This document shows, piece after piece, positions 1,903 through 64,000 of a stretch of 64,000 bases of DNA. Positions within the stretch are counted from its first letter, which is position 1. The number at the start of each line of letters is the position of its first letter. The notes beneath the pieces were generated by a model. It saw only the letters and a program-made list of their open reading frames with translations. It searched no databases and was not told the origin of the DNA. The stretch is from contig MGUU01000002.1 of assembly GCA_001800135.1 (NCBI GenBank), positions 2,388-66,387 on the forward strand, given 5' to 3'. Position numbers and translations under genes: made by a program. This stretch comes from Elusimicrobia bacterium RIFCSPLOWO2_02_FULL_39_32 (GTDB lineage: Bacteria > Elusimicrobiota > Elusimicrobia > 2-02-FULL-39-32).

Positions 1903-1947
1903 AACCCGAAGACTGCGCACTTTAAAACTTTGTGAAAAATTCGGGTT
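1903..1947. repeat. Mini palindromic element, copy A, related to the MITE-like family
   Basis: AACCCGAAG...TTTGTGAAAAATTCGGGTT. Same termini as the other copies. The TTTGTGAAAAA segment recurs inside copy C. Confidence 0.45.
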
Positions 1948-2455: not shown

Positions 2456-3194
2456 TGGTTTGACCTACAATCCAACGCGCTTCCTCACTGCATAAAAATG
2501 AGACCACATTGGCTATATCCTGAGGATGGCCAATCCTGCCCACAGGGGTTTTTGTTTTTGCCAAATGAACCATCTCTTCATATCTGGGAATTTTTTTTAG
2601 GGATTCAGTCACCGTGGTTCCAGCCATCACCACATTCACATTGATCCCTTTAGGAGCAAGTTCCACGGCTAGATAACGACTTAAACATTCAATTCCAGAT
2701 TTTGCTAAACCCACCGCGGCATAATTAGGCAAACAGCGATTGGAGCCATGGCTTGAAATGGAAACTATTTTGCCGTGCCTTCCCTGCATCAAAGGCACAG
2801 CAGCCTTTGCGCAAATGAAAAGAGATTTTAAATTAATTTGCAGGGTTCTTTCCCATTCCTCATCCTTAAGGTCAAGAATAGGTTTTAAATCCCCAGTGGC
2901 CGCATTATGAATTAAGAAATCCAATTTACCGAATTTAAGTTTGACGGTTTCAAAAATGTTTGAAAGCTGTTCAACATTGCCCATGTTCGCTCTCAAAGGA
3001 AGCACCTGGATTCCATAAGAGGAAAGCTGTTGTTCAGCCTGCAAAGCATCCGAGCGGCTGCGCAAATAAGTAAAAACAATATGCGCTCCCTTTTTAGCAA
3101 ACTTTTCTGCAATCGCATATCCAATGCCTCGGGAACCGCCGCTAATCAAAGCGATTTTATCTTTAAAAGGTCTTAAAATATTTAACTCTTGCAC
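2421..3194 (-). CDS. Short-chain dehydrogenase/reductase (enoyl/3-oxoacyl-ACP reductase-like)
   Basis: N-terminal Rossmann motif ISGGSRGIGYAIA, the NAA motif, and a catalytic YxxxK context. Confidence 0.75.
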   Translation of the reverse strand: MQELNILRPFKDKIALISGGSRGIGYAIAEKFAKKGAHIVFTYLRSRSDALQAEQQLSSYGIQVLPLRANMGNVEQLSNIFETVKLKFGKLDFLIHNAATGDLKPILDLKDEEWERTLQINLKSLFICAKAAVPLMQGRHGKIVSISSHGSNRCLPNYAAVGLAKSGIECLSRYLAVELAPKGINVNVVMAGTTVTESLKKIPRYEEMVHLAKTKTPVGRIGHPQDIANVVSFLCSEEARWIVGQTIIADGGYSLLV

Positions 3195-3217: not shown

Positions 3218-4690
3218 TTGAACACGCTTATGAATTATGAATGTGTCATTGGTTTAGAAGTGCATGTTCAGATCAATACTGAAAGCAAACTTTTCTGCTC
3301 ATGCCCCACTTTCTTTGGAGCCCCTCCGAATAGCCAGATCTGCCCGATTTGCGCAGGCTATCCGGGAGTTTTACCCGTGCTCAATAAAAAAGCGGTTGAA
3401 TCTTTAATAAAAACCGCTTTGGCTTTGGATTGCGCTGTAAATCAGGAATCTATTTTTGCCAGAAAACAATATTTTTACCCTGACCTTCCTAAAAATTATC
3501 AAATTTCCCAATATGAAAAACCTTTGGCGGAAAATGGAATTTTAATTCCTTTCTCTACAACCGGAGAAGATAAAAAAATAAAAATTAAAAGAATTCATTT
3601 GGAAGAAGATGCGGGAAAATTAATTCATACCATTGGAGCCACAGAGTTAGATTATTCTTTAGTGGATCTCAACCGCACAGGCATACCGCTCATGGAAATT
3701 GTCTCAGAGCCGGACATGAGTTCCGCAAAGCAGGCTCAGGACTATTTAACCACACTAAAGATGATCCTGGAATACTTAAAAGTTTCAGATTGTAATATGG
3801 AAAAAGGATCTCTCCGCTGTGATGCCAATATCTCAATTCGTCCAGTTGGAACCAAGACTTTAGGCAATCGAGTAGAACTAAAAAACATGAACTCTTTTCG
3901 AGGGGTGCACGATGCTTTAGTCTTTGAAATGGAACGACAAATACAAGCGCTTGAATCCGGCGGACGAATTGTTCAAGAGACTAGGCTCTGGGACACAGAT
4001 CGTAAACAGTCTGAATCCATGCGTTCCAAAGAAGAGGCGCATGACTACCGCTATTTTCCTGAACCAGATCTCCTGCCTTTAAAAGTCACAAGTCCTTGGA
4101 TTGAAGAGATCCGAGCCCAGCTGCCTGAGCTGCCTCATCAAAAACGTAAGCGTTTCATCCAAACCTACTCCCTTTCAGAATATGACACCATGGTGCTTAC
4201 ATCAAACCCTGAATTAGCTGAGTTCTATGAAAAATCCATATCATTTCTTCCCCAAAAAAAAGAGGCTGCTAAACTTATTTCTAATTGGTTAACCACTGAA
4301 CTCCTGGGCCGTTTAAACTCCTCTAATAAAACAATTTTAGAATCGCCGATTAACCCAGAAGCCTTAAGCGAACTAGTTAAACTGATTCTGGATGGCGTCA
4401 TCAGCGGTAAAATAGCTAAAAATGTGTTTGAGGAGATGTGGAAAGAACATAAAAAACCAAGCCATGTGGTGAAAGAAAAGGGCTGGGTGCAAGTACAAGA
4501 TGAAAAGGAGATTGAAAATTGGGTAACCCTTTCCATTGCCCAAAATCCTAAAGCTGTGGAAGAATTTATGAAGGGAAAAGAAAAAGCATTGGGAGCTTTA
4601 GTGGGCGCTGTCATGAAACTTTCTAAAGGGCAGGCGAATCCTGAGCTGGTGCATCAAATTTTACAGAAAAAATTAAAAAAAACTTTGTAA
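3218..4690 (+). CDS. gatB: Asp-tRNA(Asn)/Glu-tRNA(Gln) amidotransferase subunit B
   Basis: Starts YECVIGLEVHVQINTESKLFCSC and contains the GatB catalytic core. C-terminal YqeY-like tail. Confidence 0.9.
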   Translation: MNTLMNYECVIGLEVHVQINTESKLFCSCPTFFGAPPNSQICPICAGYPGVLPVLNKKAVESLIKTALALDCAVNQESIFARKQYFYPDLPKNYQISQYEKPLAENGILIPFSTTGEDKKIKIKRIHLEEDAGKLIHTIGATELDYSLVDLNRTGIPLMEIVSEPDMSSAKQAQDYLTTLKMILEYLKVSDCNMEKGSLRCDANISIRPVGTKTLGNRVELKNMNSFRGVHDALVFEMERQIQALESGGRIVQETRLWDTDRKQSESMRSKEEAHDYRYFPEPDLLPLKVTSPWIEEIRAQLPELPHQKRKRFIQTYSLSEYDTMVLTSNPELAEFYEKSISFLPQKKEAAKLISNWLTTELLGRLNSSNKTILESPINPEALSELVKLILDGVISGKIAKNVFEEMWKEHKKPSHVVKEKGWVQVQDEKEIENWVTLSIAQNPKAVEEFMKGKEKALGALVGAVMKLSKGQANPELVHQILQKKLKKTL

Positions 4691-7967: not shown

Positions 7968-9269
7968 ATGAACAAAATTCAATCAATAAAAGCGCGAGAA
8001 ATTTTAGACTCAAGAGGAAACCCCACAGTAGAAGTGGAAGTGGCGGTGGAAAAAAACAAATTTGGCAGGGCTGCTGTGCCCTCTGGAGCCTCTACTGGAG
8101 AGCATGAAGCAGTGGAATTAAGAGATGGAGACAAAACGCGTTTTAATGGGAAAGGGGTCACAAAAGCTGTAGCAAACATTCATCAAAAAATCGCTCCGGA
8201 ATTAGTTGGAATGGATGTATCCCAACAAATAGAAATTGACCAAAAACTAAAAAATTTGGATGGCACTGCCAATAAAAGCTCTTTAGGAGCCAACGCAATT
8301 TTAGGAGTTTCTTTGGCTCTCATGCGAGCATCCGCTAAAAGCCAAGAGATACCACTTTATGAAGCGATTCGCAGAGCTTATCATTTAAATCATAAAACCT
8401 ATGCGCTGCCTGTGCCCATGATGAATATCTTAAATGGAGGGGCTCACGCAGACAACAATGTGGACCTGCAGGAATTTATGATCATGCCTCTAGGATCAAA
8501 AAATTTTGCGGAAGCTTTGCGCTGGGGTTCAGAAATTTTTCATCAATTAAAAACCGTTCTGCATAAAAGAAAATTAAATACTGCGGTAGGGGATGAGGGC
8601 GGCTTTGCTCCAGACCTAAAATCAAATGAAGAAGCAGTGGAAGCTATTTTAGAAGCAGTTCGTCTTGCTGGATATAAAGCCGGCAGTGAAGTTGCCATTG
8701 CCTTAGATCCTGCAGCCAGCGAATTTTTTGAAAATAACAAATACCATTTAGAAGGAGAAACCAACGATCAAGTAAAAGATTCCCAGGCTATGGTCAAATT
8801 TTACGAAAACTGGACTAGTAAATATCCAATTGTTTCCATAGAAGATGGTGTAGCAGAAGATGACTGGGAGGGATGGAAAATTTTAACTGAAAGATTAGGC
8901 AAAAAAATACAACTGGTTGGGGATGATCTTTTCTGCACCAATACCGTGCGTTTATCTGAAGGCATCCGCAAAGGGATCGCTAATTCTATCCTGATTAAAC
9001 TAAACCAAATTGGCACTTTAAGTGAAACTGTGGAAGCGATTACCATGGCTCAAAATGCGGGTTACACCACTATTATTTCTCACCGCTCAGGCGAAACCGA
9101 GGATACTTTTATTGCGGATCTGGCGGTTGCCACCAATGCGGGGCAGATTAAAACAGGCTCTGCCTCGAGATCTGAACGCATTGCCAAATATAACCAGCTT
9201 TTACGCATAGAAGAACAACTAGGCTCCAAAGCTGAATATCCAGGAAAACAAGCGCTTCTTTTTAACTAG
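7968..9269 (+). CDS. eno: Enolase
   Basis: [17 protein letters not shown]-terminus. Enolase signature SHRSGETED. Confidence 0.95.
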
Positions 9270-9350
9270 CCCGAATCATTCATTTAGTTGTGAGAACCGA
9301 GATGAAAAAATGGCTGGATTTTTTATCGTCTTACACAATCTAAATGAATG
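9270..9350. repeat. MITE-like palindromic element, copy B (degenerate). It is inserted directly at the eno stop codon.
   Basis: It starts CCCGAAT and has an 11-bp perfect inverted repeat, CATTCATTTAG / CTAAATGAATG. Its internal core GAGAACCGAGATGAAAAAATGGCTGGATTTT is shared with the copy at 11931. Confidence 0.55.
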
Positions 9351-9378
9351 TTTTAGGCTAGGTTAATCTTTTACTTGG

Positions 9379-11291: not shown

Positions 11292-11930
11292 ATGCAACTG
11301 ATTGAACATTATCTATCTCTGCAAGGAGAAGGGCTGCGTACAGGAAAATTAACCTATTTTGTCCGTTTCGCTCGATGTAATTTACGCTGCAGTTGGTGTG
11401 ACTCAACCTATACCTTTGGTAAAGGCAAACCTATTTCTTTTGAAGCAATTGCCCAAGCCATTAAAAAAAGCAAAGCCCACTATGTTTGCCTTACTGGGGG
11501 CGAACCTTTATTGCATACAAAAGATTGCATTGAACTCATCCGCCATTTTCCAAATCTGCATTTTGATGTTGAGACCAGCGGCTCTATTGCGATTCAGCCT
11601 GTACAGCTAAAGAATAGCTCTATCATCATGGATTGGAAACTGAACCACAGCAAAATGAGCCACAAGATGAAACAGGAAAACTTTAGCTGCCTGCGCAAAA
11701 ATCAGGATCTGCTTAAATTTGTTACCGACGGCTCAAAGGAAGAACAAATGGAAATTTTAAAGATTGAGAAAAAAACAAGAAAATTTGGATTTTTAATTTC
11801 CCTGCAACCTGTGTTTGGAACCAATCCAGAAAAATGCGCTAACTGGCTCATCTCTTTAAAAAATCCCAGGTTTCAATTTAATCTCCAACTCCACAAAACA
11901 ATCTGGTCTCCCACCCAAACCAGGGTTTAA
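11292..11930 (+). CDS. queE: 7-carboxy-7-deazaguanine synthase (radical SAM)
   Basis: CNLRCSWCDS cluster motif and the QueE fold. Divergent from queG. Confidence 0.8.
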   Translation: MQLIEHYLSLQGEGLRTGKLTYFVRFARCNLRCSWCDSTYTFGKGKPISFEAIAQAIKKSKAHYVCLTGGEPLLHTKDCIELIRHFPNLHFDVETSGSIAIQPVQLKNSSIIMDWKLNHSKMSHKMKQENFSCLRKNQDLLKFVTDGSKEEQMEILKIEKKTRKFGFLISLQPVFGTNPEKCANWLISLKNPRFQFNLQLHKTIWSPTQTRV

Positions 11931-12089
11931 CCCGAAGATTGCATTAGAAAATGAGAACCGAGACGGAAAAGATAGTCATTTTTTCGAAACAAAAAAGTGA
12001 GAGAATACTTGAAAGTATTCACGAACTTTTTTGTGAAAAAAAATGGCTAGATTTTCTGTCGAATTCCATTTTCTAATGCAATCTTCGGG
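11931..12089. repeat. MITE-like palindromic element, copy C (longest). It is flanked by 5-bp direct repeats TTTAA at 11926-11930 and 12090-12094.
   Basis: Inverted termini are CCCGAAGATTGCATTAGAAAATG ... CATTTTCTAATGCAATCTTCGGG. The internal core is GAGAACCGAGACGGAAAAGATAG, followed by a roughly 90-bp insert. It sits immediately after the queE TAA. Confidence 0.7.
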
Positions 12090-12140
12090 TTTAATTGTTG
12101 AAAAAAATGATGGATTCTGTTATAGTTTTCACACATTTAA

Positions 12141-16250: not shown

Positions 16251-17789
16251 ATGAATGGGTTTAAGAATATTCTATCCGCTTCGGTTTATGGAATTAACGG
16301 CCACCTAGTGCATGTGGAGGTGGATATCTCAAGCGGCTTGCCTCATCTGTCCATTATTGGACTGCCAGATGCAACTGTAAGAGAAGCCAGGGATCGGGTG
16401 ATTTCTGCAATAAAAAATTCTGGGTACCAGTTCCCTACCAAAAAAATTATTGTGAATTTAGCCCCGGCAGAAATAAGAAAAGAAGGCTCTGCATTTGATT
16501 TGCCAATCGCTATCGGCATCCTAGCTGCCTCTGGGCAAATTAAAACAAAATCATTAGAAGAATGGTGCTTTATCGGAGAGTTAGCCTTAGATGGTCAATT
16601 AAGAGCTGTCAGAGGTATTCTGCCCATTGCAATGGAACTATCTGCTCAAAAAATAAAAAAATTGATTCTTCCATTTTCTAATTTAAAAGAAGCTGCAATT
16701 GTGCAAAGCATAGATTCTATAGGAATCCATTCCTTAAAAGAACTCATTCAGCTTTTGGAACAGGAATTCATTCCTCTTTCTAAAGAGCCTCTTCATTTTT
16801 CTCCTTATCAAGAAGATCCATTAAATTCTCTAGATTTCGCAGATGTTAAAGGCCAAAAATTTGCTAAAAGAGCTTTAGAAATTACAGCTGCCGGAGCTCA
16901 TAACCTGCTTTTGATCGGCCCTCCGGGCTCTGGAAAAACCATGCTCTCCAAAAGGATCGTAACAATTCTACCCCCTTTAAGTTTAGAGGAAGCGATAGAA
17001 ACCACAAAAATTCATTCAGTCATAGGATTATTTTCTTCAAAAAAAGGGCTCATGAGAATGCGCCCATTTAGAAATCCTCATCACACCATCTCAGATATCG
17101 CTTTAATTGGAGGAGGACAAAATCCAAAACCAGGAGAAATCTCTTTAGCCCATAATGGGGTTTTGTTTTTGGATGAACTGCCGGAATTTGAGCGCCATGT
17201 ACTGGAAGTCTTAAGGCAGCCTTTAGAATCAAGAGAAGTGGTCATTGCCCGCTCAAAAGATACGATTACCTACCCTGCAAATTTCATGTTGATCGCTGCC
17301 ATGAACCCATGCCCTTGCGGCTTTCTAGGACACCCTTTGCATGAGTGCGTTTGCACTCCTTACCAAATACAAAAATATATGGCTAAAATCTCTGGGCCTC
17401 TCTTAGATAGGATAGATCTTTTTCTGGAAGTCCCCTGCTTAAAAATTGAAGAATATGAGGAAGAAAACACAGAACCCTCTCAAACAATTTGCAAAAGAGT
17501 GATGGCAGCTAAAGAACAACAAAAAAAACGGTTTCAAAAAGAAAATATCCACTCTAATGCTGAGATGAACGCAAAACAGATTAAAAAATTCTGCAAATGT
17601 ACGCCGGAAGCTAAAAGTTTACTTAAAAACGCAACTGAAAAATTAAGGTTTTCTGCCAGAGCTTATGATAGAATATTAAAAGTTGCAAAAACCTTAAGCG
17701 ACATGCTGAATCAAGAAGAAATAGAGGCAACTCATATTGCAGAAGCTTTGCAATATAGAAGCCTGGATCGAATAAATTATTTAAATTGA
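16251..17789 (+). CDS. comM: YifB/ComM-family Mg-chelatase-like AAA+ ATPase
   Basis: N-terminal Lon-like domain, Walker A GPPGSGKT, and a C-terminal ChlI domain. Confidence 0.9.
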   Translation: MNGFKNILSASVYGINGHLVHVEVDISSGLPHLSIIGLPDATVREARDRVISAIKNSGYQFPTKKIIVNLAPAEIRKEGSAFDLPIAIGILAASGQIKTKSLEEWCFIGELALDGQLRAVRGILPIAMELSAQKIKKLILPFSNLKEAAIVQSIDSIGIHSLKELIQLLEQEFIPLSKEPLHFSPYQEDPLNSLDFADVKGQKFAKRALEITAAGAHNLLLIGPPGSGKTMLSKRIVTILPPLSLEEAIETTKIHSVIGLFSSKKGLMRMRPFRNPHHTISDIALIGGGQNPKPGEISLAHNGVLFLDELPEFERHVLEVLRQPLESREVVIARSKDTITYPANFMLIAAMNPCPCGFLGHPLHECVCTPYQIQKYMAKISGPLLDRIDLFLEVPCLKIEEYEEENTEPSQTICKRVMAAKEQQKKRFQKENIHSNAEMNAKQIKKFCKCTPEAKSLLKNATEKLRFSARAYDRILKVAKTLSDMLNQEEIEATHIAEALQYRSLDRINYLN

Positions 17790-43191: not shown

Positions 43192-43611
43192 ATGAATGAA
43201 CTAACCATTGGACAAATTGCAAAAAAGGCTGACGTAAACGTTCAAACGATCTATTTCTATGAACGTAAGAACTTAGTAACGCCCGTGAAACGAAGGGATA
43301 CGGCTATTTCTCATTCTGGTTATAGGATTTATAGTGAAGCAGAGGTTCAAAAAATCCGGTTTATTAAAAACGCGCAAGAGCTTGGATTTAGCCTAAAAGA
43401 AATTTCCGAATTACTTCACTTGCGTATTTCTACAAAAGCTCAGTGTGGTCTGGTTCAGTTAAAAGCTGAAAAAAAACTTAAAAGCATTGAGGAAAAATTG
43501 AAATCTTTAAGTCAGTTAAAAAAAGTTCTAGGAAATTTACTGAATGTTTGCAGGAATCGTAAAACTACAGATGCTTGTCCTATTTTAAAAAGTTTACAAA
43601 AAAGGAGGTGA
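43192..43611 (+). CDS. merR: MerR-family transcriptional regulator with Hg(II)-type metal-binding cysteines
   Basis: N-terminal HTH. Cys85, Cys120 and Cys129 give spacings of 35 and 9, identical to the spacing of the three metal-binding cysteines in canonical MerR. Confidence 0.85.
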   Translation: MNELTIGQIAKKADVNVQTIYFYERKNLVTPVKRRDTAISHSGYRIYSEAEVQKIRFIKNAQELGFSLKEISELLHLRISTKAQCGLVQLKAEKKLKSIEEKLKSLSQLKKVLGNLLNVCRNRKTTDACPILKSLQKRR

Positions 43612-43617
43612 AATAAA

Positions 43618-43740
43618 ATGAAACAGATCATGATAGTTCTGGGATTGCTAACCTTAGTAAGCGGAGGGATTTGGGCATATTCCACTTTAGGTAATGTTTG
43701 CTGCGGCAACCCTTCAGCGCTGTGCTGCCCTTTAAAATAA
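43618..43740 (+). CDS. Unannotated 40-aa single-TM peptide with a CC-x6-CC tail (MKQIMIVLGLLTLVSGGIWAYSTLGNVCCGNPSALCCPLK)
   Basis: AGGAGG RBS 9 nt upstream. Located between merR and merTP. Below the 60-aa cutoff of the ORF track. Confidence 0.55.
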   Translation: MKQIMIVLGLLTLVSGGIWAYSTLGNVCCGNPSALCCPLK

Positions 43741-43754
43741 GGAAGTTTTCTAAA

Positions 43755-44336
43755 ATGAAAAAAATATTTCTTGCAGCGGGAGCAGTTGTATCCTCAGCTC
43801 TGGCGTCGGTCTGTTGTCTAGGACCTATCGTTCTTTTAGGCTTAGGAGTGGGGGGTGTTGGTTTTGCGGCTGTGTTAGCAAAATATCGTCCTCTCTTTTT
43901 AGGTTTGACTTCAATTCTTTTAGGGATTGCATTCTATCTAACCTATAGAAAAAGAGAAGTTGCTTGCGAAGATGGCAGCTGTGAACTTCAATCAGGAAGT
44001 AAACCTATGAAGAGGGCTTTATGGATTGTTACAGTTGCAGCGCTTGGATTCGCTACGTTCCCCAACTGGTCCACTTTTGCTTTGAAAAGAGCTCCTCCGG
44101 TTGAGCAATCAAATATGGAAACTATTCGATTATCCATTGCCGGCATGAGCTGTACCGCCTGCGCTGTGAGCATACAGAAGTCCCTCAAGAAAGTGCCGGG
44201 CGTGGAGATTGCATCCGTAGATTTCGAAAAGTCCGAAGCTGTGGTTCAAATTCACCCGGGAAAAATCGAAAATGATGCGTTGATTCGAGCTGTTCAAACA
44301 GCCGGCAGCTATACAGCAAAAATAAAAGAGAATTAA
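43755..44336 (+). CDS. merT: MerT-MerP fusion: mercuric-ion transport membrane protein fused to an HMA metallochaperone domain
   Basis: ALASVCCLGPIVLLGLG and KYRPLFLG match MerT TM1/TM2. A second Cys pair (CEDGSC) is present. The C-terminal HMA domain carries GMSCTAC. Confidence 0.85.
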   Translation: MKKIFLAAGAVVSSALASVCCLGPIVLLGLGVGGVGFAAVLAKYRPLFLGLTSILLGIAFYLTYRKREVACEDGSCELQSGSKPMKRALWIVTVAALGFATFPNWSTFALKRAPPVEQSNMETIRLSIAGMSCTACAVSIQKSLKKVPGVEIASVDFEKSEAVVQIHPGKIENDALIRAVQTAGSYTAKIKEN

Positions 44337-44347
44337 GGAGAAACTCT

Positions 44348-44815
44348 ATGTCTCAACCCATTCAGTCTCATGAAGAATGCTGCAAGATATCAACCACTTT
44401 ATGCCCCTGCCCAGTCTGCGGGAATATGGGAAGGAGAGTGACGCCTCGAACTCTAGACAACCATGTGCCAAGCCCTTTGAGAGAATCAATAGGAGATGAT
44501 GCCACTTTCTGTACGAATCCTGACTGCAAAGTTGTTTATTGCAATCCCAAAAAGATGGTGGTTCTAAGGGGCGAAACCAAATTCCCTGTAACCATTAAGG
44601 ACTCTGGAGATGATGTGTACGTCTGCTACTGTTTCCAACATAAACGCAGAGATCTGCGGCGGGATCTTAAAGAAAAAGGAACCACAGATATTCCAGATAG
44701 AATCCGAAAGTGCGTTAAAGAGGGTATGTGCGATTGCGAACGTAAAAATCCACAGGGAGCCTGCTGTTTAGGAAACATGACTAACGCCATTAAAAGCATC
44801 CAAGAGGGACGTTAG
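44348..44815 (+). CDS. Cysteine-rich (14 Cys) putative metal-binding protein
   Basis: CC, CPCPVC, CTNPDC, CYC, CDC and ACC motifs. No recognised family. Confidence 0.55.
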   Translation: MSQPIQSHEECCKISTTLCPCPVCGNMGRRVTPRTLDNHVPSPLRESIGDDATFCTNPDCKVVYCNPKKMVVLRGETKFPVTIKDSGDDVYVCYCFQHKRRDLRRDLKEKGTTDIPDRIRKCVKEGMCDCERKNPQGACCLGNMTNAIKSIQEGR

Positions 44816-47201: not shown

Positions 47202-47471
47202 TTATGCCGCTCGAAGATCGCTTTTAGCCTCATATAAATCTATTGCATTTTGCAGGTTCATCCAAAATTCAGGGGTTGTTTTAAGTATTTTAGACAAAAG
47301 AATCGCAGTTTCTGCAGTAACGCCTCTCTTTCCATTAATGAGGGTATTAATCCGCTGAATTGGAATATTCATTCGCCTTGCTAACTCAAGCTGGCTCATT
47401 CCCATGGGTTTAAGGAACTCAATTAAAAGTATTTCACCGGGATGAGTGGGTCTTCTCTGTTTTGGAATCAT
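47202..47471 (-). CDS. higA: HigA-family antitoxin (XRE HTH)
   Basis: HTH_XRE. Position downstream of higB. Confidence 0.8.
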   Translation of the reverse strand: MIPKQRRPTHPGEILLIEFLKPMGMSQLELARRMNIPIQRINTLINGKRGVTAETAILLSKILKTTPEFWMNLQNAIDLYEAKSDLRAA

Positions 47472-47481
47472 GTCAATTCTC

Positions 47482-47775
47482 CTAATCGTGATAATCTAAA
47501 ATTCTAACACCGTCGATATTGTTGTTCATCCATTTAAAGACAATTCGATATTGATCGTTGATTCGAATGCTATAGAATCCTTTCATGTTTCCCTTGAGGA
47601 GTTCGAGTCTGTTTCCCGGAGGAGCAAGCAAATCCTGTAAGGCATGCGCTGTATTAATCATATCAAGTTTTCTTGTAGCAACTTTCCAAAGCTGCAAAGG
47701 AATCCTTCTTGCCTCTTTAGAGTTGATTCCATGGTAGATATCTTCAGTTGTCTTGTCTCCAAAGCTCGTAATCAC
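47482..47775 (-). CDS. higB: HigB-family toxin (RelE/ParE superfamily)
   Basis: 97 aa plasmid-maintenance killer-like protein. Toxin-first order. Confidence 0.75.
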   Translation of the reverse strand: MITSFGDKTTEDIYHGINSKEARRIPLQLWKVATRKLDMINTAHALQDLLAPPGNRLELLKGNMKGFYSIRINDQYRIVFKWMNNNIDGVRILDYHD

Positions 47776-47846: not shown

Positions 47847-50800
47847 TTAGGCTTGCTGCTTATAGAGCTGGGATATTTTTTGTTCTTCATCCTTAGAAGG
47901 CGGTTCCAGTGGAACTCCTTGGATGGTCAGACGATCTCCTATAATTTCCACTCCTCGTTCCCCCTTTAAGCCCTCTGCCCAGTCTCTTAACCCTGAATTC
48001 CTTGCCCCCATCTCTATTAAGCTTAAGCTCACTTCTTCACTAATATCTAGAACTTGCGGAATCAAAATCTTGATATTCCATTCTTGAGCCTCTTTTCCTA
48101 AAAGGTTTGTCCATACCATTGAACTCTTCTCTGTGGTAACAATCCTTAAGGAGAAAGATTCGATCATGGCTATTCTCTTTAACTCAATCACCGCTTCTTC
48201 CGCGCTTTCTAAAATAGCTATTCTCCCCCTTATGCCCAATGCTTTTTCTATCTCTCCAATGGCTGCGCCATTCTTATTCACAAAAAGATACTGAACTTTC
48301 TTAAATGGATGCTTCTTTTTCTCTTCTTCAATCTGCTGAATGGTTCTTAATTGCAGTAAACGATCGTTCTCAGTCTTTGCGCTCTTAAAATCTATCAGAC
48401 AAATCTCTATCTGATTCACCTCTGCGCTCCAAAATTGAAAAACTTTATCTAGCGCAGAGGAATAAGAGAATTCGGTTTGCAATAGAAGTTCCTTAATCTT
48501 ATCTGTTGAATCCCCCAAAGCTTGGGCTACTTGTACAATTCCTTGAAGGTTAGGATTGATTCCCCTTTCAATTCCAGCAAAAGTTTTTGAAACATTCGTA
48601 AGGTAATGAACGATTACGGAAGCAGCTAAGAGTAGAGGAAATGAAATCCAGAAGGGAACAGGAATAATTAGTTGGATAATACCTAAAAGCAAGTTGATGC
48701 GAGCGATCTTTTTTGCAGATTCAAGAAATTGTGGTGGAGCACGGGAATCAAAACGATTAGCGATCCATTCTTTGTGACCTTCCACAAATACGCGCACACT
48801 AGAAAAGAAAGAGACTTGCAGCGCTACTTGAAAATTGCTCCCTGTCAAAATATAAGTTAAAAGCCCGATAGACAACGCACTCAAGCCAAAAGAGATCACA
48901 TCCTCTAACAACGCCCACTTCCGATTGTACTCCTCTAGGGTAAGATCAGGGAAGAAATGTTTTCTAAGCAACTTATATAACCATAACCAGTTGCCGCCAC
49001 CAGAAAAGTCATCAGCGTGATTAGAAGGAAATTCTCCTAATATTTGTTGTATTCTGACCGACTCTACAAGGAATGCGGCATGTGGATAGCTATTTTTAAT
49101 TTCGTCGCATATTTTTGAATAAAGATCATTTTGAGGGGTGTAAATATCAACAGAACTTACTCGCTGAGTCATCACTACATTATTGATCACATCAGCAAAA
49201 AATCTGGCTAGAATTCTCATCTCCCAAGATAAAAGGCGGGATGGAACATTAAATGAAAAAGTGTGAGTATTATCATTAGCGTGAATCAATATTGTTATTT
49301 TTTCATTTTGATCTGGAATCGCTGACTCTGTCAACCTTCTTCCCACATCCACTATGTTTCCAGACTTTTCTACAACGCTAATTGGAAGCGGGCTTCGCCT
49401 GCCATATTTTATCGCCTCATCAATCTCATGAATTTTGGTTTCTAAATCATTGAGACCATCTGGTCCCAATGTTCTAAACGACCACACGCCCAAATTTTCT
49501 GCTGGCTCAACATCTTTTAAATAATCATTCCCAACATAAACAATTTGACTGGGACTCACTCCAAGCGCTGCCAAGACCCTTTCATAAAAAATTGGTTCTG
49601 GTTTAGAGGCTTTTACCCGATCTCTGGTAATAAGAAGCGACGGATCAAAACATTCCTCAATGCCAATGATTTGCAATATTCTTTTAACCACCTCTTTGCC
49701 ACTATTAGTTGCTATCGCTAAAGTATAACCCTGTTGTTTAAGATGGTCTAAGAACTCTTTTAGCTTTGGATTAGGCTTTATCAAATCGAACGGCATATGC
49801 TTCAGTTCTCCTATTTCTTTTCCTCCCCAACTGATGCTGAATTCAAGGGATAATTGGTTGCTGCTTACCGCGCCTTTGTTTGAAAGCTCATCACTTTTAT
49901 TTTGGATTACCTCTCTGGCTGTTTCGATTGAGACATTATTTCTTTCAGCATAGGTTCGTACAAGCGCTTCCCTATACATAGCCTCGAACTCTGGAGCATG
50001 GTAAAGAGTTCCATCCAAATCAAATAAAATCAATTTAATTTTTTCATTGCTGCTGGAATGTGTGTCGGTTCTATCCTGAACTTGACCTTGCGCTTTAGTT
50101 TTTGACTCTTTTAGGAGGGCACGAACAGGAGGATGATTGGAGATACCATCAGCAAGGCTTGCTAGGATTGTGCCGCCGGCAGTGGTACGCTGAATAGCAG
50201 GGTTTAACTCGCGGCCACCCCAATCCTTTTCACGAACCTCATTCACAGCCTTGAGCATATCACCACCAACCAGAAAGACTGGAACTCCGGCTCCCCTTGC
50301 TTTCTCTAGTTTTTCTAAAAGTTGCCGTGTGGCTGTACGCCCGTCATTCCGTTCAAAAACTCCAGTACCGCCATTGGCGATAATCCAGCCATCGCCATTA
50401 TTTTTATGGCGCTCTATGATCTTATCAATCTCTACAAGTATTACATCCAGTGTCTTAGAACCAATGTCTATCGCTTTTTGCTCAATACCAATCCGATCGA
50501 CAAGTTCTGCTGTGTCCTCGTCCCGCACAATGACTCTATGATCTATAGGTAACAATAACTTCATATCGTTCTCTTGCGCTCTCTCTCTAATTTTGGAAAT
50601 AGCTTTTTCAACCTTGAGCGCCGCTTCCCCCTTTGGCAGCCTTGACTTACCTATGGACTGATCTGCCTGTTTAAGGAAAGGATATGCTAAGGCTCCTACA
50701 ACGACCATGATATCCCCAGCATGTTGTTGCCCACTCGACACATATTTGAGCAAATGTTTGTATATCTTATCTGGTTTAGTTCCTCCCCAAATAATAAGTC

Positions 50801-53800
50801 CTGCACCACGAGCTTCCGCTTCAAACTCAAGCTTTTTGTTGACTTCTTTAACAAATGAAATTCCAGCTGCCCGTGCCTCTACAGGAAAATGGTTTACCAT
50901 TCGCACTGTTGCATCCGTGTTGTGACTTTCTATCGCCTCATTAATATAAGCTGCAGGATGACCTAATGCGTTAAGAAGTCGTTCAATAAATTTGTCCTGA
51001 TCTTCAGGAATCGGCTGTGAACCAGAATAATAACTGCTCTCCTCTGGATAGAAACGGCTGTTGGGTAACATAAAGACAATCTTTTTATTTTGATATACCT
51101 TACGCGCAGATTCAATGGCAGCGGGAATTGCGTCAATATCTTCTGGAAGCATAACGATTCCAGCGTCAATGCCTATTTCCATCATACGCTTTTCGGCTAT
51201 TGGAAGCACTCTTCTTTCAACATCAAACTTCTCTCGCGTAACGGAATCATCAAGCTCTTCTTTACTGGGTCGTCCAAGATGGGTACAGATAAAAAGTTCG
51301 TCAAATTTTTCTAAGGCACTTTTAACGGTTTCCACAGTCTGCACGATCTTTGTATCCCCATCTCCCGGATCCTCTCCAATATCCCAGTTAATCTTGAGAA
51401 ATGCAGATATCCCATCAGGTAAATCCTCTATGGTTCGTATTGCCCCGGACTGATCAGATGATGTAAGAAAAATCTTTTCTGATTCTGGAGCTGGAGACGG
51501 TTCGTATGCGTCACCTCCGCCACTGCTTGTGCCAGATATTTGATGAGGACCATGATCCTTTGGTAAATTCTTGTCTAACCCCCGACTCTTTATTTCATTC
51601 TGATAATTCATCCGCCCTAAAGTGAGCGCCATGGAAATCTTAAGATTGACATCTTTTGTTTCATTCAGCCATTCAATAAGCATATCCTTATTGAATAAAT
51701 AATTCCCGCGTTCCGTTTGTATAACTTCAAATTCATCCCACGCGGGCACAATATTTCGTACTTCTAAAACTTGATCTTCACGATCCTTGAATAATTTTTC
51801 AGATTCATGGATGATGGACTCTTCAATGGATTCACCCTTAGTCTTAGCCAAAAATTCTGGACCCCACTTAGGTTTTACAAGTTCCTTAGCGGAAATTTTT
51901 CCGGTTTCCGCTAGATTTAAATTGTTATCTGCGGCATTAGCAGTGCTATTTTCTTGAAACCGCCTCATGAGATACTTGAGCGCCTTCTCGATTCCTCCCT
52001 TGATGACAAAAGGCACATAAGAATAGACGCGGGGAAGAGCCTTATCTTCTCCCCAAAAAAATCTAAAAATTTCCTGAAGAGCTCGTTTCAAATTTTCCGT
52101 CATTCCAAACAAGGATTGAAATTCCAAATGTTGTGGATCCACATCCAATTTCTTTGCCCACAATAGAGCGCTTACAATAGTTCTCGCATCATGACTGGCG
52201 ATCCCGATTCTTTGGATGAGTTTATGTTTTCTAAATAATAGTCGCACTATTTCCAAATAGTTTTCGTCGGTTTTCCAATTTCCCATCCAAACAGGAATTG
52301 GATCACCACGCTCTTCTGCATCGCGAACCTCCTGCGAATGATAAGCTCCCTTAACAGGACGGATGGCGATAGGCATTGGATCCTCAGGATCCTTTTCCAT
52401 CCAGTTTATGAGCCCCTCAACTTCAGCCAATGAATCTACAAAATAGGCTTGTACCACCATCCCGACGTCCGGAATACGCCTGCCGTTTTCTCGCACCATC
52501 TTCAAATTTGGATCTAACTGATTTTCAAGCTCTTCCAGAACAGTCTGGATTACTTCATTAGCAACATCACGATAAATGTACTCTTCTTTATCAACCCAGA
52601 CAATTGCTCCCATCTGTCCTGCTCTTTTAACTTCACGCACTTTTGCCACTATCTTTTTGTAATTCTGAACAGCCAAATTGAATCCTTCTCTTCTCACAGA
52701 TTCAACTTCACTATCCAGCCAACTTTGCGGTGTAAGATTAGTTACCTTTGAGGAAATATTAGGTTCTAGACCATAGGACGCCATTTTTTCAATAAGATCC
52801 ACACAAGCTTGAGCATTTTCCATAGCTTCTTGTTCCGTATGAATTCCTTCACCCAAAATGTCTGCTATAGATAAAACAGGTCTGGACTCGGACTTCCCAT
52901 CTCTTACAACCCGTATCCCTTTAGCCGCCATTTCTCGTATAACTTTTTCTACCGCCTTTTCTTGTGAGAGATTTTTCATGGATTTAAGTGCTTCATCCTC
53001 AGTGTCTCCCACAATATACTGCGCTGTCATAAAAAACAATAACTTGCGCAGCCATTCCTTAAAAATTTCCGGTGTCCTATCAGACTGGATGATTTTATCA
53101 GCCAAATCTACACTCCCAGTTAAGAGTTTTGCAAACCAAGGGGTGGGGTACATTTTTAAAATGAACTTTGTGATTCCGTTTCTTAAGAGCTCTAGTACAT
53201 TTAAGTTCCGTTCTCTTTCTTGTCGGATTAATTTGGATGCTTCCACGAGTCTTTCTGTCTCACGAACGATTTCAGACTCCGGTATTCCCCATCCGCTATT
53301 ATCCTCTTCTATCTCGTCTCCATTTTGGAAATGCGTTTGGGGTTTACTAGGTTGAAAACGGGGACGTTTCACATTTCCCTCTAAATTAGAAACGTCCTTG
53401 TTTTTCCTTAATATGTCACTCAAGTCTGTTGGGCCCAGAGCAAAAAATAGATTGGCGAGGATCGCCGCAACTGCTGTAGGTATGGTTAGCCAGTGAAATC
53501 CAGCCACTGCAAAGATGGCCACAGCCGCAACTAAATTTGCATAAATGCCTGAACTTCCATGAGCTCCCGGAACTGTTAAGCGAAAACCCAAAACCTTTTG
53601 CAAACCCGGCGGCCAATCATCAAAAGCAATCACGCCTTTTGTGTCAAACTTGGGCCAACTCCATTCTTTAAATGGTTTTTTCCAGTTGACCTCAATCATG
53701 TGGCCAACCTCATTGATAACAATGGCAAGAAAAACAGCGGAAATTGCGCTGCCCCAAAGAGAATTAGCGTCAACTACAATGCCGAAAAATCCTGCTAAAA

Positions 53801-55196
53801 CGATCGCGGATAGATAAGTAACGACTGGAACAACAAATGGAAGAGCAATTAGATCGCTCGCATTTTCCAAATGAGCTTTGTCCGGATCATATTCGCCGAT
53901 CACTCTCATATTGACCCGTGTGGGATCTACTAAGATTTCTGATAATTTATCATGGGATCCTTTAGAGTAAAGATATTCTTTTACAATTCCTCTAATCCCC
54001 CATTTCTCTATATCAAGCGATTTAAAAGTTTCATTAAACGATATGAGTTCGAACAAATGCTGGATTGGATCCCAAGCTAACCAAGTAACCGGGGCGGGAG
54101 GATTACTTTTTTCATCGAACCATTGCCGACGAAAATGCTCTACAACCCTTTCCCTCCCAATTTTCAATACTTCTTTTAGCGATCCATAAAAGGTTCTTTC
54201 TAATATTTGCCCTGGCACAAGAGGGTGTCTCCTACTCCCAAAATGGTAAGCCACAACTCTTTCCCCACGATACAAGCGATTAAGCAATTCCTCTTCTGAT
54301 TTAATCTCTTCCATTCTAATTAATGGAGCGCTGGCAAGTGATTCCTGGGGTATGGATTTAAGAGATAGTTCGACTTCATAAAGATACGCCGCTTTAAATG
54401 CCCGCGGATAAAAAAATATAGAACGTGCCCGTGAGAGAGGAGTTCTCACATTAGGTGAAAGTTCTGGAGACATGTTAGAATTAAGTGAGGTGTCTCCAAT
54501 CTTTCTACCGCCTGACTTGCCATCTTTCTTTCTTCCAGACATTGCGGATAAATGTGGACTTAAAACATTATCTTTTTTCTGTCTAAAGATGTTGGCTAAT
54601 GAGGAGGTTTTGGATCGGCTCTTCCTATTCATGGTCATTGCAACATAGAACTTACGCGCTTTTTTAACGCGTCGGTTCATGAGATTAGATAAATCAATGT
54701 TAACAGGTATAAGAGACGGGGTTTTCAAAAAAATCTGTCTCAAAAGTTCTAAGCTGTCTTCCCAATCTTGAGAGATCTTCTCTTCAACTTTGTAATAGCA
54801 TTGTACCGCGTAATCTAAAACTGTTTCAAAAATCTTCACTGATTTTTCACGGATCAGATCAAATTCCTCTTTTGCATTATTCAGAATAGAGTTAGAAAAT
54901 CCCATATTTCGGTCTAATGGCTGGAGATTAGAATTTTGAGGAATATATTTGTTAAGCACTACTTGCTGTTCCGTCGGTGATTTTACAGAAAGAGGTCTTC
55001 CCCGAAATTGAAAACTCTCGGCTTTGGAGGAAGAAGTTTGTTTGGCTTGGGCAAAGGGCGGGAGGATAATAGAAATCAACAAAGCGCCGACAACGACGAG
55101 CGCGGTGCTCTGTTTAAAAAACCTGATGATTTTTTTATTCCAAAAGTTGTGCATATCACGAACGCGCATTACGCGTATATAAAAATAATTATACAA
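47847..55196 (-). CDS. Giant (2449 aa) multidomain protein. Domain order: signal peptide, Ser/Lys-rich low complexity, TM bundle, proline-dehydrogenase-like TIM barrel, phosphoglycerate-kinase-like domain, HAD phosphatase, TM segments, C-terminal domain.
   Basis: Uninterrupted ORF. Signal peptide MHNFWNKKIIRFFKQSTALVVVGALLISIILPPFAQA, so the probable start is the internal ATG near 55154. PRODH signatures: RPVKGAY and YVPFVIKGGIEKALKYLMRRFQEN. PGK-like motifs: ICTHLGRPSKEE, NSRFYPEE, IANGGTGVFER, GGDMLKAV. HAD motif I: LILFDLDGTLY, followed by the YVGND motif. Confidence 0.8.
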   Translation of the reverse strand: MYNYFYIRVMRVRDMHNFWNKKIIRFFKQSTALVVVGALLISIILPPFAQAKQTSSSKAESFQFRGRPLSVKSPTEQQVVLNKYIPQNSNLQPLDRNMGFSNSILNNAKEEFDLIREKSVKIFETVLDYAVQCYYKVEEKISQDWEDSLELLRQIFLKTPSLIPVNIDLSNLMNRRVKKARKFYVAMTMNRKSRSKTSSLANIFRQKKDNVLSPHLSAMSGRKKDGKSGGRKIGDTSLNSNMSPELSPNVRTPLSRARSIFFYPRAFKAAYLYEVELSLKSIPQESLASAPLIRMEEIKSEEELLNRLYRGERVVAYHFGSRRHPLVPGQILERTFYGSLKEVLKIGRERVVEHFRRQWFDEKSNPPAPVTWLAWDPIQHLFELISFNETFKSLDIEKWGIRGIVKEYLYSKGSHDKLSEILVDPTRVNMRVIGEYDPDKAHLENASDLIALPFVVPVVTYLSAIVLAGFFGIVVDANSLWGSAISAVFLAIVINEVGHMIEVNWKKPFKEWSWPKFDTKGVIAFDDWPPGLQKVLGFRLTVPGAHGSSGIYANLVAAVAIFAVAGFHWLTIPTAVAAILANLFFALGPTDLSDILRKNKDVSNLEGNVKRPRFQPSKPQTHFQNGDEIEEDNSGWGIPESEIVRETERLVEASKLIRQERERNLNVLELLRNGITKFILKMYPTPWFAKLLTGSVDLADKIIQSDRTPEIFKEWLRKLLFFMTAQYIVGDTEDEALKSMKNLSQEKAVEKVIREMAAKGIRVVRDGKSESRPVLSIADILGEGIHTEQEAMENAQACVDLIEKMASYGLEPNISSKVTNLTPQSWLDSEVESVRREGFNLAVQNYKKIVAKVREVKRAGQMGAIVWVDKEEYIYRDVANEVIQTVLEELENQLDPNLKMVRENGRRIPDVGMVVQAYFVDSLAEVEGLINWMEKDPEDPMPIAIRPVKGAYHSQEVRDAEERGDPIPVWMGNWKTDENYLEIVRLLFRKHKLIQRIGIASHDARTIVSALLWAKKLDVDPQHLEFQSLFGMTENLKRALQEIFRFFWGEDKALPRVYSYVPFVIKGGIEKALKYLMRRFQENSTANAADNNLNLAETGKISAKELVKPKWGPEFLAKTKGESIEESIIHESEKLFKDREDQVLEVRNIVPAWDEFEVIQTERGNYLFNKDMLIEWLNETKDVNLKISMALTLGRMNYQNEIKSRGLDKNLPKDHGPHQISGTSSGGGDAYEPSPAPESEKIFLTSSDQSGAIRTIEDLPDGISAFLKINWDIGEDPGDGDTKIVQTVETVKSALEKFDELFICTHLGRPSKEELDDSVTREKFDVERRVLPIAEKRMMEIGIDAGIVMLPEDIDAIPAAIESARKVYQNKKIVFMLPNSRFYPEESSYYSGSQPIPEDQDKFIERLLNALGHPAAYINEAIESHNTDATVRMVNHFPVEARAAGISFVKEVNKKLEFEAEARGAGLIIWGGTKPDKIYKHLLKYVSSGQQHAGDIMVVVGALAYPFLKQADQSIGKSRLPKGEAALKVEKAISKIRERAQENDMKLLLPIDHRVIVRDEDTAELVDRIGIEQKAIDIGSKTLDVILVEIDKIIERHKNNGDGWIIANGGTGVFERNDGRTATRQLLEKLEKARGAGVPVFLVGGDMLKAVNEVREKDWGGRELNPAIQRTTAGGTILASLADGISNHPPVRALLKESKTKAQGQVQDRTDTHSSSNEKIKLILFDLDGTLYHAPEFEAMYREALVRTYAERNNVSIETAREVIQNKSDELSNKGAVSSNQLSLEFSISWGGKEIGELKHMPFDLIKPNPKLKEFLDHLKQQGYTLAIATNSGKEVVKRILQIIGIEECFDPSLLITRDRVKASKPEPIFYERVLAALGVSPSQIVYVGNDYLKDVEPAENLGVWSFRTLGPDGLNDLETKIHEIDEAIKYGRRSPLPISVVEKSGNIVDVGRRLTESAIPDQNEKITILIHANDNTHTFSFNVPSRLLSWEMRILARFFADVINNVVMTQRVSSVDIYTPQNDLYSKICDEIKNSYPHAAFLVESVRIQQILGEFPSNHADDFSGGGNWLWLYKLLRKHFFPDLTLEEYNRKWALLEDVISFGLSALSIGLLTYILTGSNFQVALQVSFFSSVRVFVEGHKEWIANRFDSRAPPQFLESAKKIARINLLLGIIQLIIPVPFWISFPLLLAASVIVHYLTNVSKTFAGIERGINPNLQGIVQVAQALGDSTDKIKELLLQTEFSYSSALDKVFQFWSAEVNQIEICLIDFKSAKTENDRLLQLRTIQQIEEEKKKHPFKKVQYLFVNKNGAAIGEIEKALGIRGRIAILESAEEAVIELKRIAMIESFSLRIVTTEKSSMVWTNLLGKEAQEWNIKILIPQVLDISEEVSLSLIEMGARNSGLRDWAEGLKGERGVEIIGDRLTIQGVPLEPPSKDEEQKISQLYKQQA

Positions 55197-59041: not shown

Positions 59042-59708
59042 GCATCATCTCCTGTATTCTTCTTTCAACAAGATGAATCACTTGCTGTCTTAATCCTTCC
59101 AAAGTGTGCGTGTAGGGGTCCATTTTAGCAACATCTTTGGCGAGCTTAGTTTCTCCCAAAGCAGTTTCAAACCAATTGGAAAAATCATTGATCCCAAGAG
59201 GCGGACGAATTCTCGCTTCAAAAATATGGTGATAAAGAGAATTGATGCTTACTTTTTTTAGCGCTTTGGCAAATTCACTTAAATTCCACGCCTCATAAGG
59301 CGTTGGCAACACAAAGCTGATAGATTGCTTAAAGTAAAATTCATCTCCTTCAGGCGCATCATGGTAATTGTTATATGAAATAAGATGGTTCTCAATCGTT
59401 TGAATGATTTTCTCTCTAATGTCTCGAATAGTCGGAAAACGGATGGTGTCTATCGCAAATAGCTTTTCCGCCAATTTTTCATCCTGCAAGGCAGTGTCCA
59501 CCCAATAGGCAAAATCGTTGGGGGGCTCAGGCGATAAGAACTGATGCTGTTTTAGAAATCGGTGGGTGTGATGATAAATTACCGAACCTGGGACTTCCTT
59601 TAGACAGCTGAGAAGTTCATGGATATTTTTTGCTTTCCAATGAGTAATTTGAGTAATGCTAATTTGGGTTACAAATCTAAATGGCGCGCTTGCCATTTTA
59701 AGTTCCAT
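59034..59708 (-). CDS. Hypothetical protein (tandem ~90-aa repeats) between treT and otsB
   Basis: Overlaps treT by 8 nt. Internal duplication (FAYWVDTALQDEKLAEKLFAIDT / FSNWFETALGETKLAKDVAKMDP). Confidence 0.45.
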   Translation of the reverse strand: MELKMASAPFRFVTQISITQITHWKAKNIHELLSCLKEVPGSVIYHHTHRFLKQHQFLSPEPPNDFAYWVDTALQDEKLAEKLFAIDTIRFPTIRDIREKIIQTIENHLISYNNYHDAPEGDEFYFKQSISFVLPTPYEAWNLSEFAKALKKVSINSLYHHIFEARIRPPLGINDFSNWFETALGETKLAKDVAKMDPYTHTLEGLRQQVIHLVERRIQEMMRV

Positions 59709-59709
59709 T

Positions 59710-60546: not shown

Positions 60547-60557
60547 TGAAAATAGAG

Positions 60558-63573: not shown

Positions 63574-63600
63574 TCCTTATTTACCTCCATAAAGGTTCTA

Positions 63601-63670
63601 CCCGAAACTTGCATTAGAAAATGAGAACTGAGACGGAAAAGATAGCCAATTTCTAATGCCAACATTCGGG
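63601..63670. repeat. MITE-like palindromic element, copy D (minimal 70-bp form). It is flanked by 5-bp direct repeats TTCTA at 63596-63600 and 63671-63675.
   Basis: Termini CCCGAAACTTGCATTAGAAAATG ... TTTCTAATGCCAACATTCGGG. Core GAGAACTGAGACGGAAAAGATAG. The right-hand repeat overlaps the crcB stop codon. Confidence 0.7.
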
Positions 63671-63672
63671 TT

Positions 63673-64000
63673 CTATACTAATTCAGCCGCAATTTGTCCA
63701 AGATAAAATAAAAATAGCCCGAACACAAAACTTCCCATCCCATTTAGAATCGCTTTCAATAATTCCCCATCTTTAAGGAGATTAACAGTTTCTAAAATAA
63801 GAGTAGAAAATGTGGTGAAGGCGCCGCAAAATCCAACCATGAGTAAAATTCTTGCATTTGGGTTCAATAAAAATTTTACTTCAGCCAAAGCATTCAAAAA
63901 ACCAATCAGAAAACATCCGGATAAATTTACCGCTAATGTGCCATAAGGAAAATTGCTGCCAAAAAATTTGTAAACTAATCCCGCTAGCACATAACGGGAA
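63673..64000 (-). CDS. crcB: Fluoride ion channel CrcB/Fluc. The 5' end may lie beyond the window, since the in-window start is a GTG at 63990.
   Basis: GTLAVNLSGCFLIGFL and FCGAFTTFSTL motifs. Confidence 0.8.
   Translation of the reverse strand, partial: SRYVLAGLVYKFFGSNFPYGTLAVNLSGCFLIGFLNALAEVKFLLNPNARILLMVGFCGAFTTFSTLILETVNLLKDGELLKAILNGMGSFVFGLFLFYLGQIAAELV

Follow-up and report, generated by a model that had tools for sequence, protein, structure and literature searches.

Several bacterial repeat families, i.e., the Correia elements of Neisseria, the ERIC sequences of enterobacteria and the RUP and BOX elements of the pneumococcus, are imperfect palindromes of roughly 100-170 bp with inverted termini and resemble miniature transposable elements with inverted repeats (MITEs). 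They lie in transcribed intergenic DNA, often near gene ends, occur in internal deletion and insertion variants, and Correia and ERIC copies are known to affect RNA processing and expression. For the insertion sequences (IS) of the IS982 family, the end consensus is 5'-AC(N)6T(N)5TT-3' (PMC7335449), and a MITE derived from this family is known from the Bacteroidota, namely MITECca01 of Cardinium (PMC9769881). Here we analyse a family of palindromic elements in a 64,000-nt stretch of the genome of Elusimicrobia bacterium RIFCSPLOWO2_02_FULL_39_32 (assembly GCA_001800135.1, contig MGUU01000002.1, positions 2,388 to 66,387), hereafter the window, and refer to the copies as A to D in the order of their positions. 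The host is a metagenome-assembled genome from the Rifle aquifer; proteins identical to those of the window are on record for Elusimicrobia genomes from there, and the window is also found on MGUN01000014.1 of GCA_001799945.1. These elements are very probably IS982-type MITEs, that is, non-autonomous mobile elements with IS982-type termini.

The window elements resemble the Correia, ERIC, RUP and BOX repeats in their position and in their variants and differ from them in sequence, in target (TA for Correia) and in the presumed transposase family. With IS982 of Lactococcus, ISRa1 of Riemerella and IS1187 of Bacteroides they have in common ends that begin with ACCCG(A/T)(A/T) and fit the family consensus, as well as the spread in Bacteroidota and other phyla, whereas they contain no transposase gene and measure 40-290 bp, against about 1 kb for those IS. 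MITECca01 and MITECca02, derived from ISCca4, are likewise non-autonomous IS982-family derivatives in a host from the Bacteroidota, and MITECca01 is about 240 bp long, high in copy number and mostly intergenic (Halter et al. 2022, PMC9769881); they are likened to the present elements by description, not by sequence. MITECca01 is, however, reported to be confined to a single strain whose genome also has the parental IS, whereas the present termini are spread over several phyla and many families, and a parental IS did not turn up in the collections searched.

Two copies in the window are secure. The 23-nt termini of copy C (CCCGAAGATTGCATTAGAAAATG) match at 23 of 23 positions, or over 28 nt at 96% when the flanks are counted, and its interior arms are an imperfect palindrome in their own right. 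The 169-nt hairpin computed for C and its flanks has a folding energy (dG) of -85.3 kcal/mol (z = -16.5). The left terminus is preceded by an A and thus reads ACCCGAA..., an IS982-type end, and C is identical across seven assemblies of the window species. Copy D shares with C the left terminus and the core GAGAACYGAGACGGAAAAGATAG (59 nt at 88%). The relationship is supported by an nhmmer E value of 1.5e-8 and by a global alignment score of 77.5 against 12.8 +/- 4.1 for shuffled sequences, and the patterns of C and D are expected by chance 0.00-0.01 times. The duplications of D are perfect and its termini imperfect, the right one having diverged. D was found in every same-species assembly read at that site, and it splits an otherwise tight crcB-DUF190 pair, the spacer being 99 nt in the window species vs 10-19 nt in two other genomes; the ribosome-binding site of DUF190 is kept downstream of the second TAGAA.

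The other two copies are less certain. Copy B, flanked by CTAG at 9266-9269 and at 9358-9361, carries CCCGAA, TGAGAACCGAGA and AAAAAATGGCTRGATTTT, arranged as they are in C, with a different stem sequence and imperfect termini; its fold is stable (dG -36.5 kcal/mol, z = -6.75). Its relation to C is significant in global alignment only (score 42; shuffles 14.3 +/- 5.0, maximum 35.5), nhmmer giving E values of 0.1-0.3. Copy A (CCCGAAGACTGC...TTCGGG) has in common with C only CCCGAAGAYTGC, TTCGGG and the TTNAA-like flanks; it folds weakly (dG -14.2 kcal/mol), and its alignment with C is not significant (18 vs 9.2 +/- 3.5 for shuffles, maximum 22), nhmmer likewise giving no support. The arrangement CCCGAA-N20-50-TTCGGG by itself turns up in 7 of 100 shuffled sequences. 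A further 14-nt match at 16669-16682 lies within a coding region and was rejected as chance. The original prediction, made from the sequence of the window, had counted at least four copies with common inverted termini and a common core. This description holds for C and D; B is a diverged member without the terminus or the full core that had been ascribed to it, and A is doubtful. The perfect 5-bp repeats reported around C (TTTAA) and D (TTCTA) were found as described.

Table 1. Copies of the palindromic element in the window, with their terminal inverted repeats and target-site duplications (positions are those of the window).
Feature	Position	Strand	Remarks
Copy C, full-length 159-bp palindromic MITE	11931..12089	none	between the queE stop and the promoter of the next operon
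C, left terminal inverted repeat CCCGAAGATTGCATTAGAAAATG	11931..11953	+	exact pattern match, chance expectation 0.01
C, right terminal inverted repeat	12067..12089	-	perfect reverse complement of the left one
C, left target-site duplication TTTAA	11926..11930	none	includes the queE stop TAA
C, right target-site duplication TTTAA	12090..12094	none	read from sequence
Copy D, 70 bp, apparently an internally deleted derivative (left arm and right terminus)	63601..63670	none	within the crcB-DUF190 operon
D, target-site duplication TTCTA, DUF190 side	63596..63600	none	read from sequence
D, target-site duplication TTCTA	63671..63675	none	minus strand TAGAA, includes the crcB stop TAG
Copy B, 88-bp older diverged family member	9270..9357	none	between the eno stop codon and divIC
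Copy A, doubtful 41-bp remnant CCCGAAGACTGC...TTCGGG	1905..1945	none	flanks TTGAA and TTAAA

All four copies (159, 70, 88 and 41 bp for C, D, B and A) are far below transposase coding size. The differences between them had been explained by an insertion of about 90 bp into C and by a modular build of the family. Alignments and folds favour the opposite direction, i.e., internal deletion of a palindromic master copy. D agrees with C in the left terminus and in the 30 nt that follow, then goes directly to the right terminus, and thus resembles a C from which one side of the interior has been deleted; B, without the left interior as D is without the right one, may have arisen in the same way. On this evidence C is the full palindromic form rather than a short element with an insertion.

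The case for mobility comes from orthologous sites in related Elusimicrobia, in which the gene order eno-divIC-...-queG-queE-PASTA is kept. In L191, where queE is 85% identical to that of the window in DNA and 71% at third codon positions, B is missing and the eno-divIC spacer is 17 nt long with one CTAG. L238 (GCA_016180425.1), with 95% identity of queE DNA and 90% at third positions, has a drifting B with a handful of differences, an extra 25-nt segment and decaying termini. At the end of queE, the C site is empty in L192, where the gene ends with ...GCATTTAA (TTTAA), followed by ATT and ATG, and the TTTAA thus already terminates queE before any element is present. In L191, the same site is occupied by a decayed relative of 64 nt with hardly any fold (-7.4 kcal/mol), and in L238 by a decayed remnant of 36 nt, which differs from C at about 30% of positions (counted by eye) and is about 120 nt shorter, in a genome about 5% diverged. 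Among the relatives compared, C is pristine in the window species only, and the queE-stop site occurs in empty, remnant and pristine states. The empty sites of B and C, together with the remnants left at the site of C, mark the elements as mobile DNA rather than a conserved structure of the 3' untranslated region. The absence of B in L191 and the empty C site in L192 are what the original prediction had proposed to look for in relatives, and in place of the conserved non-mobile structure that it had named as the contrary outcome, the sites are empty or decayed. The pristine state of C beside decayed counterparts in genomes about 5-15% diverged is not accounted for by one insertion followed by decay, and therefore requires a second event, i.e., a fresh insertion, a replacement or a conversion.

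Two details of these comparisons concern the sequence in and next to the elements. The extra segment within the B orthologue of L238 (21-155) is G+C-rich (CCCCCTTGGCTTTGCTCGGGACAGG). The 38 nt just 3' of C (12095-12132) are identical in L191, though synonymous sites are only about 71% identical, and they include TTGAAA-17-TATAGT, which with its extended TG resembles a promoter. These nucleotides are host sequence outside the element and probably the conserved promoter of the PASTA-rpe-rpsP operon.

The terminus is not private to this host. The 20-mer CCCGAAnnnTGCATTAGAAA was scanned over about 186,000 species-representative genomes and was found at at least 120 loci, each taken as an 8-kb stretch; the counts that follow refer to the matches listed. 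Bacteroidota predominate (Saprospiraceae, Flavobacteriaceae, Bacteroidales, Aquimarina, and Marinilabiliales-type isolates, i.e., Thermophagus, Labilibacter and Draconibacterium), and complete elements are also present in metagenome-assembled genomes (MAGs) of Ignavibacteriae, Omnitrophica (Rifle aquifer), Campylobacterota, Actinomycetota and Hyphomicrobiales, where mis-binning of single contigs is possible. A matching right end was located within 400 bp in 71 cases, with lengths of 52-309 bp and a mode of about 165 bp. The five bases outside the terminus are T (84%), T (90%), W (86%), A (93%) and A (84%). In 38 of the 71 elements the same 5-mer stands on the left and on the right, compared with 14 on average and 22 at most when the 5-mers are re-paired at random (1000 trials). 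The central base agrees between the two flanks in 57 of the 71 and is complementary in 8. Because of this 5-mer identity and central-base agreement, the flanks are true TTNAA target duplications and not an extension of the inverted repeats. The interiors are lineage-specific while the termini are constant. The prediction of MITE-like elements mobilised in trans into 5-bp A/T-rich targets is thus borne out by duplications throughout the family and by empty orthologous sites; the idea of a novel family without known placement gives way to a widespread superfamily with an IS982-family end signature. Our search of the literature on the terminus, on MITEs of Bacteroidetes and on IS982 together with MITEs did not find the family described. 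The superfamily is apparently undescribed and very widespread, and yet an ordinary kind of bacterial mobile DNA.

Some individual members of the superfamily deserve mention. A metagenome scan with the window-type terminus returned only five stretches. One of them (L180, Ga0209343_10000004, 4283-4540) represents a second organism, in which an element with the left terminus of D starts at the stop of the upstream open reading frame (ORF), with a ClpC-like gene downstream of it. This element contains TCCTAAAGGACGAGAGTG twice in its interior, and an intact right terminus was not recognised in it. On Ga0156032_105 (L179, 1132-1154), the last three letters of a solo left terminus, ...GCATTAGAAAATG, are the ATG with which an alanine-dehydrogenase-like ORF starts, and the element end may there supply or abut the translation start. 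A decayed copy of about 165 bp lies on plasmid pSD15 of Microscilla sp. PRE1 (NC_002806.1 around 55.5 kb; L128, about 2995-3165), flanked by ATTAT on both sides in a region with an IS3-like pseudogene and without annotation in the record, the one annotated record that was inspected for such a copy. In Bacteroidetes bacterium UKL13-3 (CP012155.1; L048, 971-1610), a solo terminus adjoins a 5'-truncated IS1595-like transposase ORF, probably through insertion into another IS and subsequent deletion; as a truncated gene of an unrelated IS, this ORF was rejected as a partner of the elements.

The length of the duplication depends on how the terminal A/T is counted: it is 5-bp TTNAA if this base pair stands outside the element and 3-bp TNA in a T-TNA-A context if it stands inside. 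The IS982 convention assigns the terminal A/T to the element. A length of 5 bp is favoured by four concordant outer pairs that depart from the consensus (T/T, G/G, A/A and C/C; e.g., TTTAG/TTTAG and ATTAA/ATTAA) and by the empty site of B, where the element starts exactly at CCCGAA after G. Many outer flank positions are discordant in old copies of the superfamily.

Insertion exactly at stop codons had been put forward as a feature of the family. It is correct for B, C and D, the stops of eno (TAG), queE (TAA) and crcB (TAG, minus strand) each lying within the flanking repeat, and does not extend to the superfamily, where 7 of the 74 elements among the matches listed adjoin the stop of an ORF with a length of 80 codons or more. 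Stop codons overlap with 11 of the 106 TTNAA sites that the window has outside its gene bodies, and a placement of about 10% at stop codons is therefore expected from target availability. The L180 element, a relative with the same terminus from another metagenome, likewise starts at a stop codon, and in the Elusimicrobia lineage four of four elements are on stop codons vs roughly 10% expected. A TTNAA target often includes a stop triplet, and since the duplication restores the stop codon, such an insertion leaves the gene intact and is harmless. Insertions of this kind could be those that survive in a genome that is 89% coding, the remaining non-coding sites being probably mostly promoters or ribosome-binding sites. 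The enrichment is thus likely due to selection and small numbers.

The assignment to IS982 follows from the ends, which fit the IS982 consensus and the known members of the family far better than they fit IS1380. The superfamily consensus ACCCGAATTATGCATT of the listed matches conforms to AC(N)6T(N)5TT: CCC follows an A in 84% of ends, position 9 is T in 98 of 123, and TT at positions 15-16 is fixed. IS982 itself, from an L. lactis plasmid, has the ends ACCCGAATTGCTAGTT... and ...AATTCGGGT; its first 9 nt are those of the MITE end, and ACCCGAATT is common to both. ISRa1 and a widespread ISRa1-like element end with ACCCGTTGTGCATTATGAA, which matches the MITE end at 17 of 19 positions (by eye, with a 2-nt gap allowed). 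ISRa1 and the MITE end have ACCCG..TGCATTA..AA in common, the latter having 2 extra nt between ACCCG and TTRTGCATTA. The end of IS1187 is ACCCGTTGGCGGAATTAA, and a terminal ACCCG starts IS982, ISRa1, the ISRa1-like element and IS1187 alike. In IS982-family loci from IMG/VR (45) and PLSDB, all identifiable termini begin with CCCG(T/A)(T/A), nearly always preceded by A; some ends in IMG/VR were not located. The similarity of termini at family level, like the repeat family with its termini, duplications and empty sites, can be read directly from the sequences compared.

Several observations weigh against this assignment. The termini of C and D have the AC and TT of the consensus but deviate from T at position 9. 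The listed members of the IS982 family give duplications of 0-10 bp, with no TTNAA preference or other target specificity reported, whereas the present elements are strict in their TTNAA target and apparently duplicate 5 bp; one ISRa1-like copy has a 7-bp duplication with A...T boundaries. The host has only two to four copies within about 82 kb of its DNA (two secure, one diverged and one doubtful in the 64 kb of the window and none in a further 17.7 kb beyond it); in other genomes, at least about 9-24 loci each were counted. The pristine state of C at a site that is decayed in related genomes, discussed above, also belongs here. Above all, an exact autonomous partner, i.e., an IS of about 1 kb with the same termini, was not found in the window and about 18 kb of host flanks, nor in 125 MITE-bearing loci, the 45 IMG/VR loci of the IS982 family or PLSDB.

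The search for this partner was made in several ways. As the original prediction had noted, there is no transposase in the window: tblastn with IS982 and IS1380 transposases gave nothing there or in 127 loci, including the 125 that bear MITEs, and the Pfam tables of called genes and extra ORFs show no transposase in the window or in the 17.7 kb beyond its ends, so that no IS982-type DDE transposase (PF01609/PF13612) is present in about 82 kb of host DNA. ORFs adjoining solo or long elements include no partner transposase, and all-against-all clustering of ORFs from 120 loci revealed no recurrent one. In PLSDB, blastn with the MITE and with the terminus found the decayed Microscilla copy only. 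In IMG/VR, the 20-mer gave one chance-like match, and none of the 120 loci matched by a relaxed 14-mer contained an IS982 gene. The 45 IMG/VR loci and several PLSDB members of the IS982 family have related ends, none of them identical to those of the elements. The search for an IS with matching ends that had been suggested was thus successful at the level of the family and found no IS with the exact termini in the collections searched.

The termini could define a distinct, site-specific branch of the IS982 type, with a TTNAA target and a 5-bp duplication, a 20-nt end constant across phyla (Bacteroidota, Ignavibacteriota, Omnitrophota, Elusimicrobia and other MAGs among the matches listed), interiors that turn over, and a transposase that is rare, unlinked or not carried on a canonical IS, possibly together with a stop-codon preference or re-use of sites in Elusimicrobia. 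We regard such a branch as tentative and rather unlikely.

For the present elements, we hypothesize that an IS982-family DDE transposase, encoded elsewhere in the genome now or formerly, would bind the roughly 23-26-bp (A)CCCGAAnnnTGCATTAGAAA termini. A staggered cut at a TTNAA-like site, followed by repair, would leave a 5-bp duplication around the inserted element. Its long hairpin would result from the inverted termini together with the palindromic interior, and one-sided deletions of this palindrome would have produced D and B. The identity of the transposase, its present activity and the mode of movement, cut-and-paste or copy-and-paste, belong to what is inferred here.

Origin from an IS1380-family (piggyBac-related) transposon has to be considered, as elements of this family have ends that start with CC and make 4-5-bp duplications. 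The present ends start with CCC, the duplication of 5 bp is at a TTAA-like site, and the left end of ISEcp1 (CCTAGATTCTACGTCAGTACTTC) has 13 of 23 positions in common with the MITE end (by eye). However, real IS1380-family ends share little with it past CC (ISEcp1 CCTAGATTCTACGT, IS942 CCTCAAATCCGCAAC), a CCCGAA..TGCATTAG-like end occurs in none of 44 IS1380-family loci in IMG/VR, and the better match of the IS982-family ends makes this origin highly unlikely.

The hairpins might instead be conserved cis-acting RNAs, i.e., terminators, mRNA-stabilising 3' hairpins or small RNAs, kept for their function and not mobile. Such a role had been suggested for them from the start, and it agrees with the three good copies in transcribed positions directly after stop codons, with very stable folds (z -3.7 to -16.5), and with the perfect complementarity of the termini of C at a site that has decayed in relatives. 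The search of Rfam for the window, the elements and 15 related loci gave no family match at the gathering threshold and, at the E-value threshold, only generic microRNA-precursor hairpins far below their cut-offs, and the terminator scan found no canonical terminator (a G+C-rich stem with a U-tract) at the elements. Moreover, copies are absent or decayed in sister species, the L191 remnant hardly folds, and the differences between B of the window and that of L238 make and break pairs about equally. The same termini occur with unrelated interiors, at unrelated genes, in several phyla and with target duplications. Functional RNA as the reason for these repeats is therefore very improbable. Transcription of the hairpins together with queE, eno and crcB is certain, and effects on mRNA stability or on DUF190 expression, or a secondary use of individual copies, are possible to judge from their positions. 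That the elements are REP/REPIN palindromes spread by a RAYT (an IS200/IS605-like tyrosine transposase), or chance palindromes, is hardly credible in spite of their being long extragenic hairpins without a linked transposase, as REPINs to our knowledge have neither target duplications nor DDE-type termini, whereas the duplications here are statistically real, the termini are IS982-like, the ORFs around the elements include no recurrent transposase-like one, and pattern statistics and fold z-scores exclude chance.

Other features of the window lie apart from the elements. An nhaA-I (Na+) riboswitch (RF03057, 47.7 bits) at 63072-63134 on the minus strand stands upstream of a trehalose operon (57818-62861, minus strand) that encodes an OtsA-like Glyco_transf_20 protein, a trehalose phosphatase, a DUF5752 protein and TreT_GT1, and this placement suggests a sodium-responsive control of osmolyte synthesis. 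A single ORF of 2449 aa (called as 2435 aa) at 47847-55196 on the minus strand combines Pfam domains of proline dehydrogenase, phosphoglycerate kinase and HAD hydrolase, an unusual fusion. On the same strand, a pair of a HigB-like toxin and an HTH_3 antitoxin (about 47202-47775) comes directly after a thioredoxin-domain gene. The MerR / MerT-HMA / zf_CopZ cluster at 43192-44815 on the plus strand resembles a metal-resistance module.

The copies are signs of recent mobile-DNA activity in a streamlined Elusimicrobia lineage from groundwater, and D, which stands inside a fluoride-resistance operon (crcB-DUF190), could alter expression downstream. Beyond this host, the strict TTNAA target and the 20-nt end constant across phyla point to a conserved module of recognition between transposase and DNA. 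By recognising the termini, thousands of hairpin 'intergenic repeats' in Bacteroidota and in MAGs of candidate phyla could be labelled as IS982-type MITEs, which would prevent their confusion with terminators or novel RNAs.

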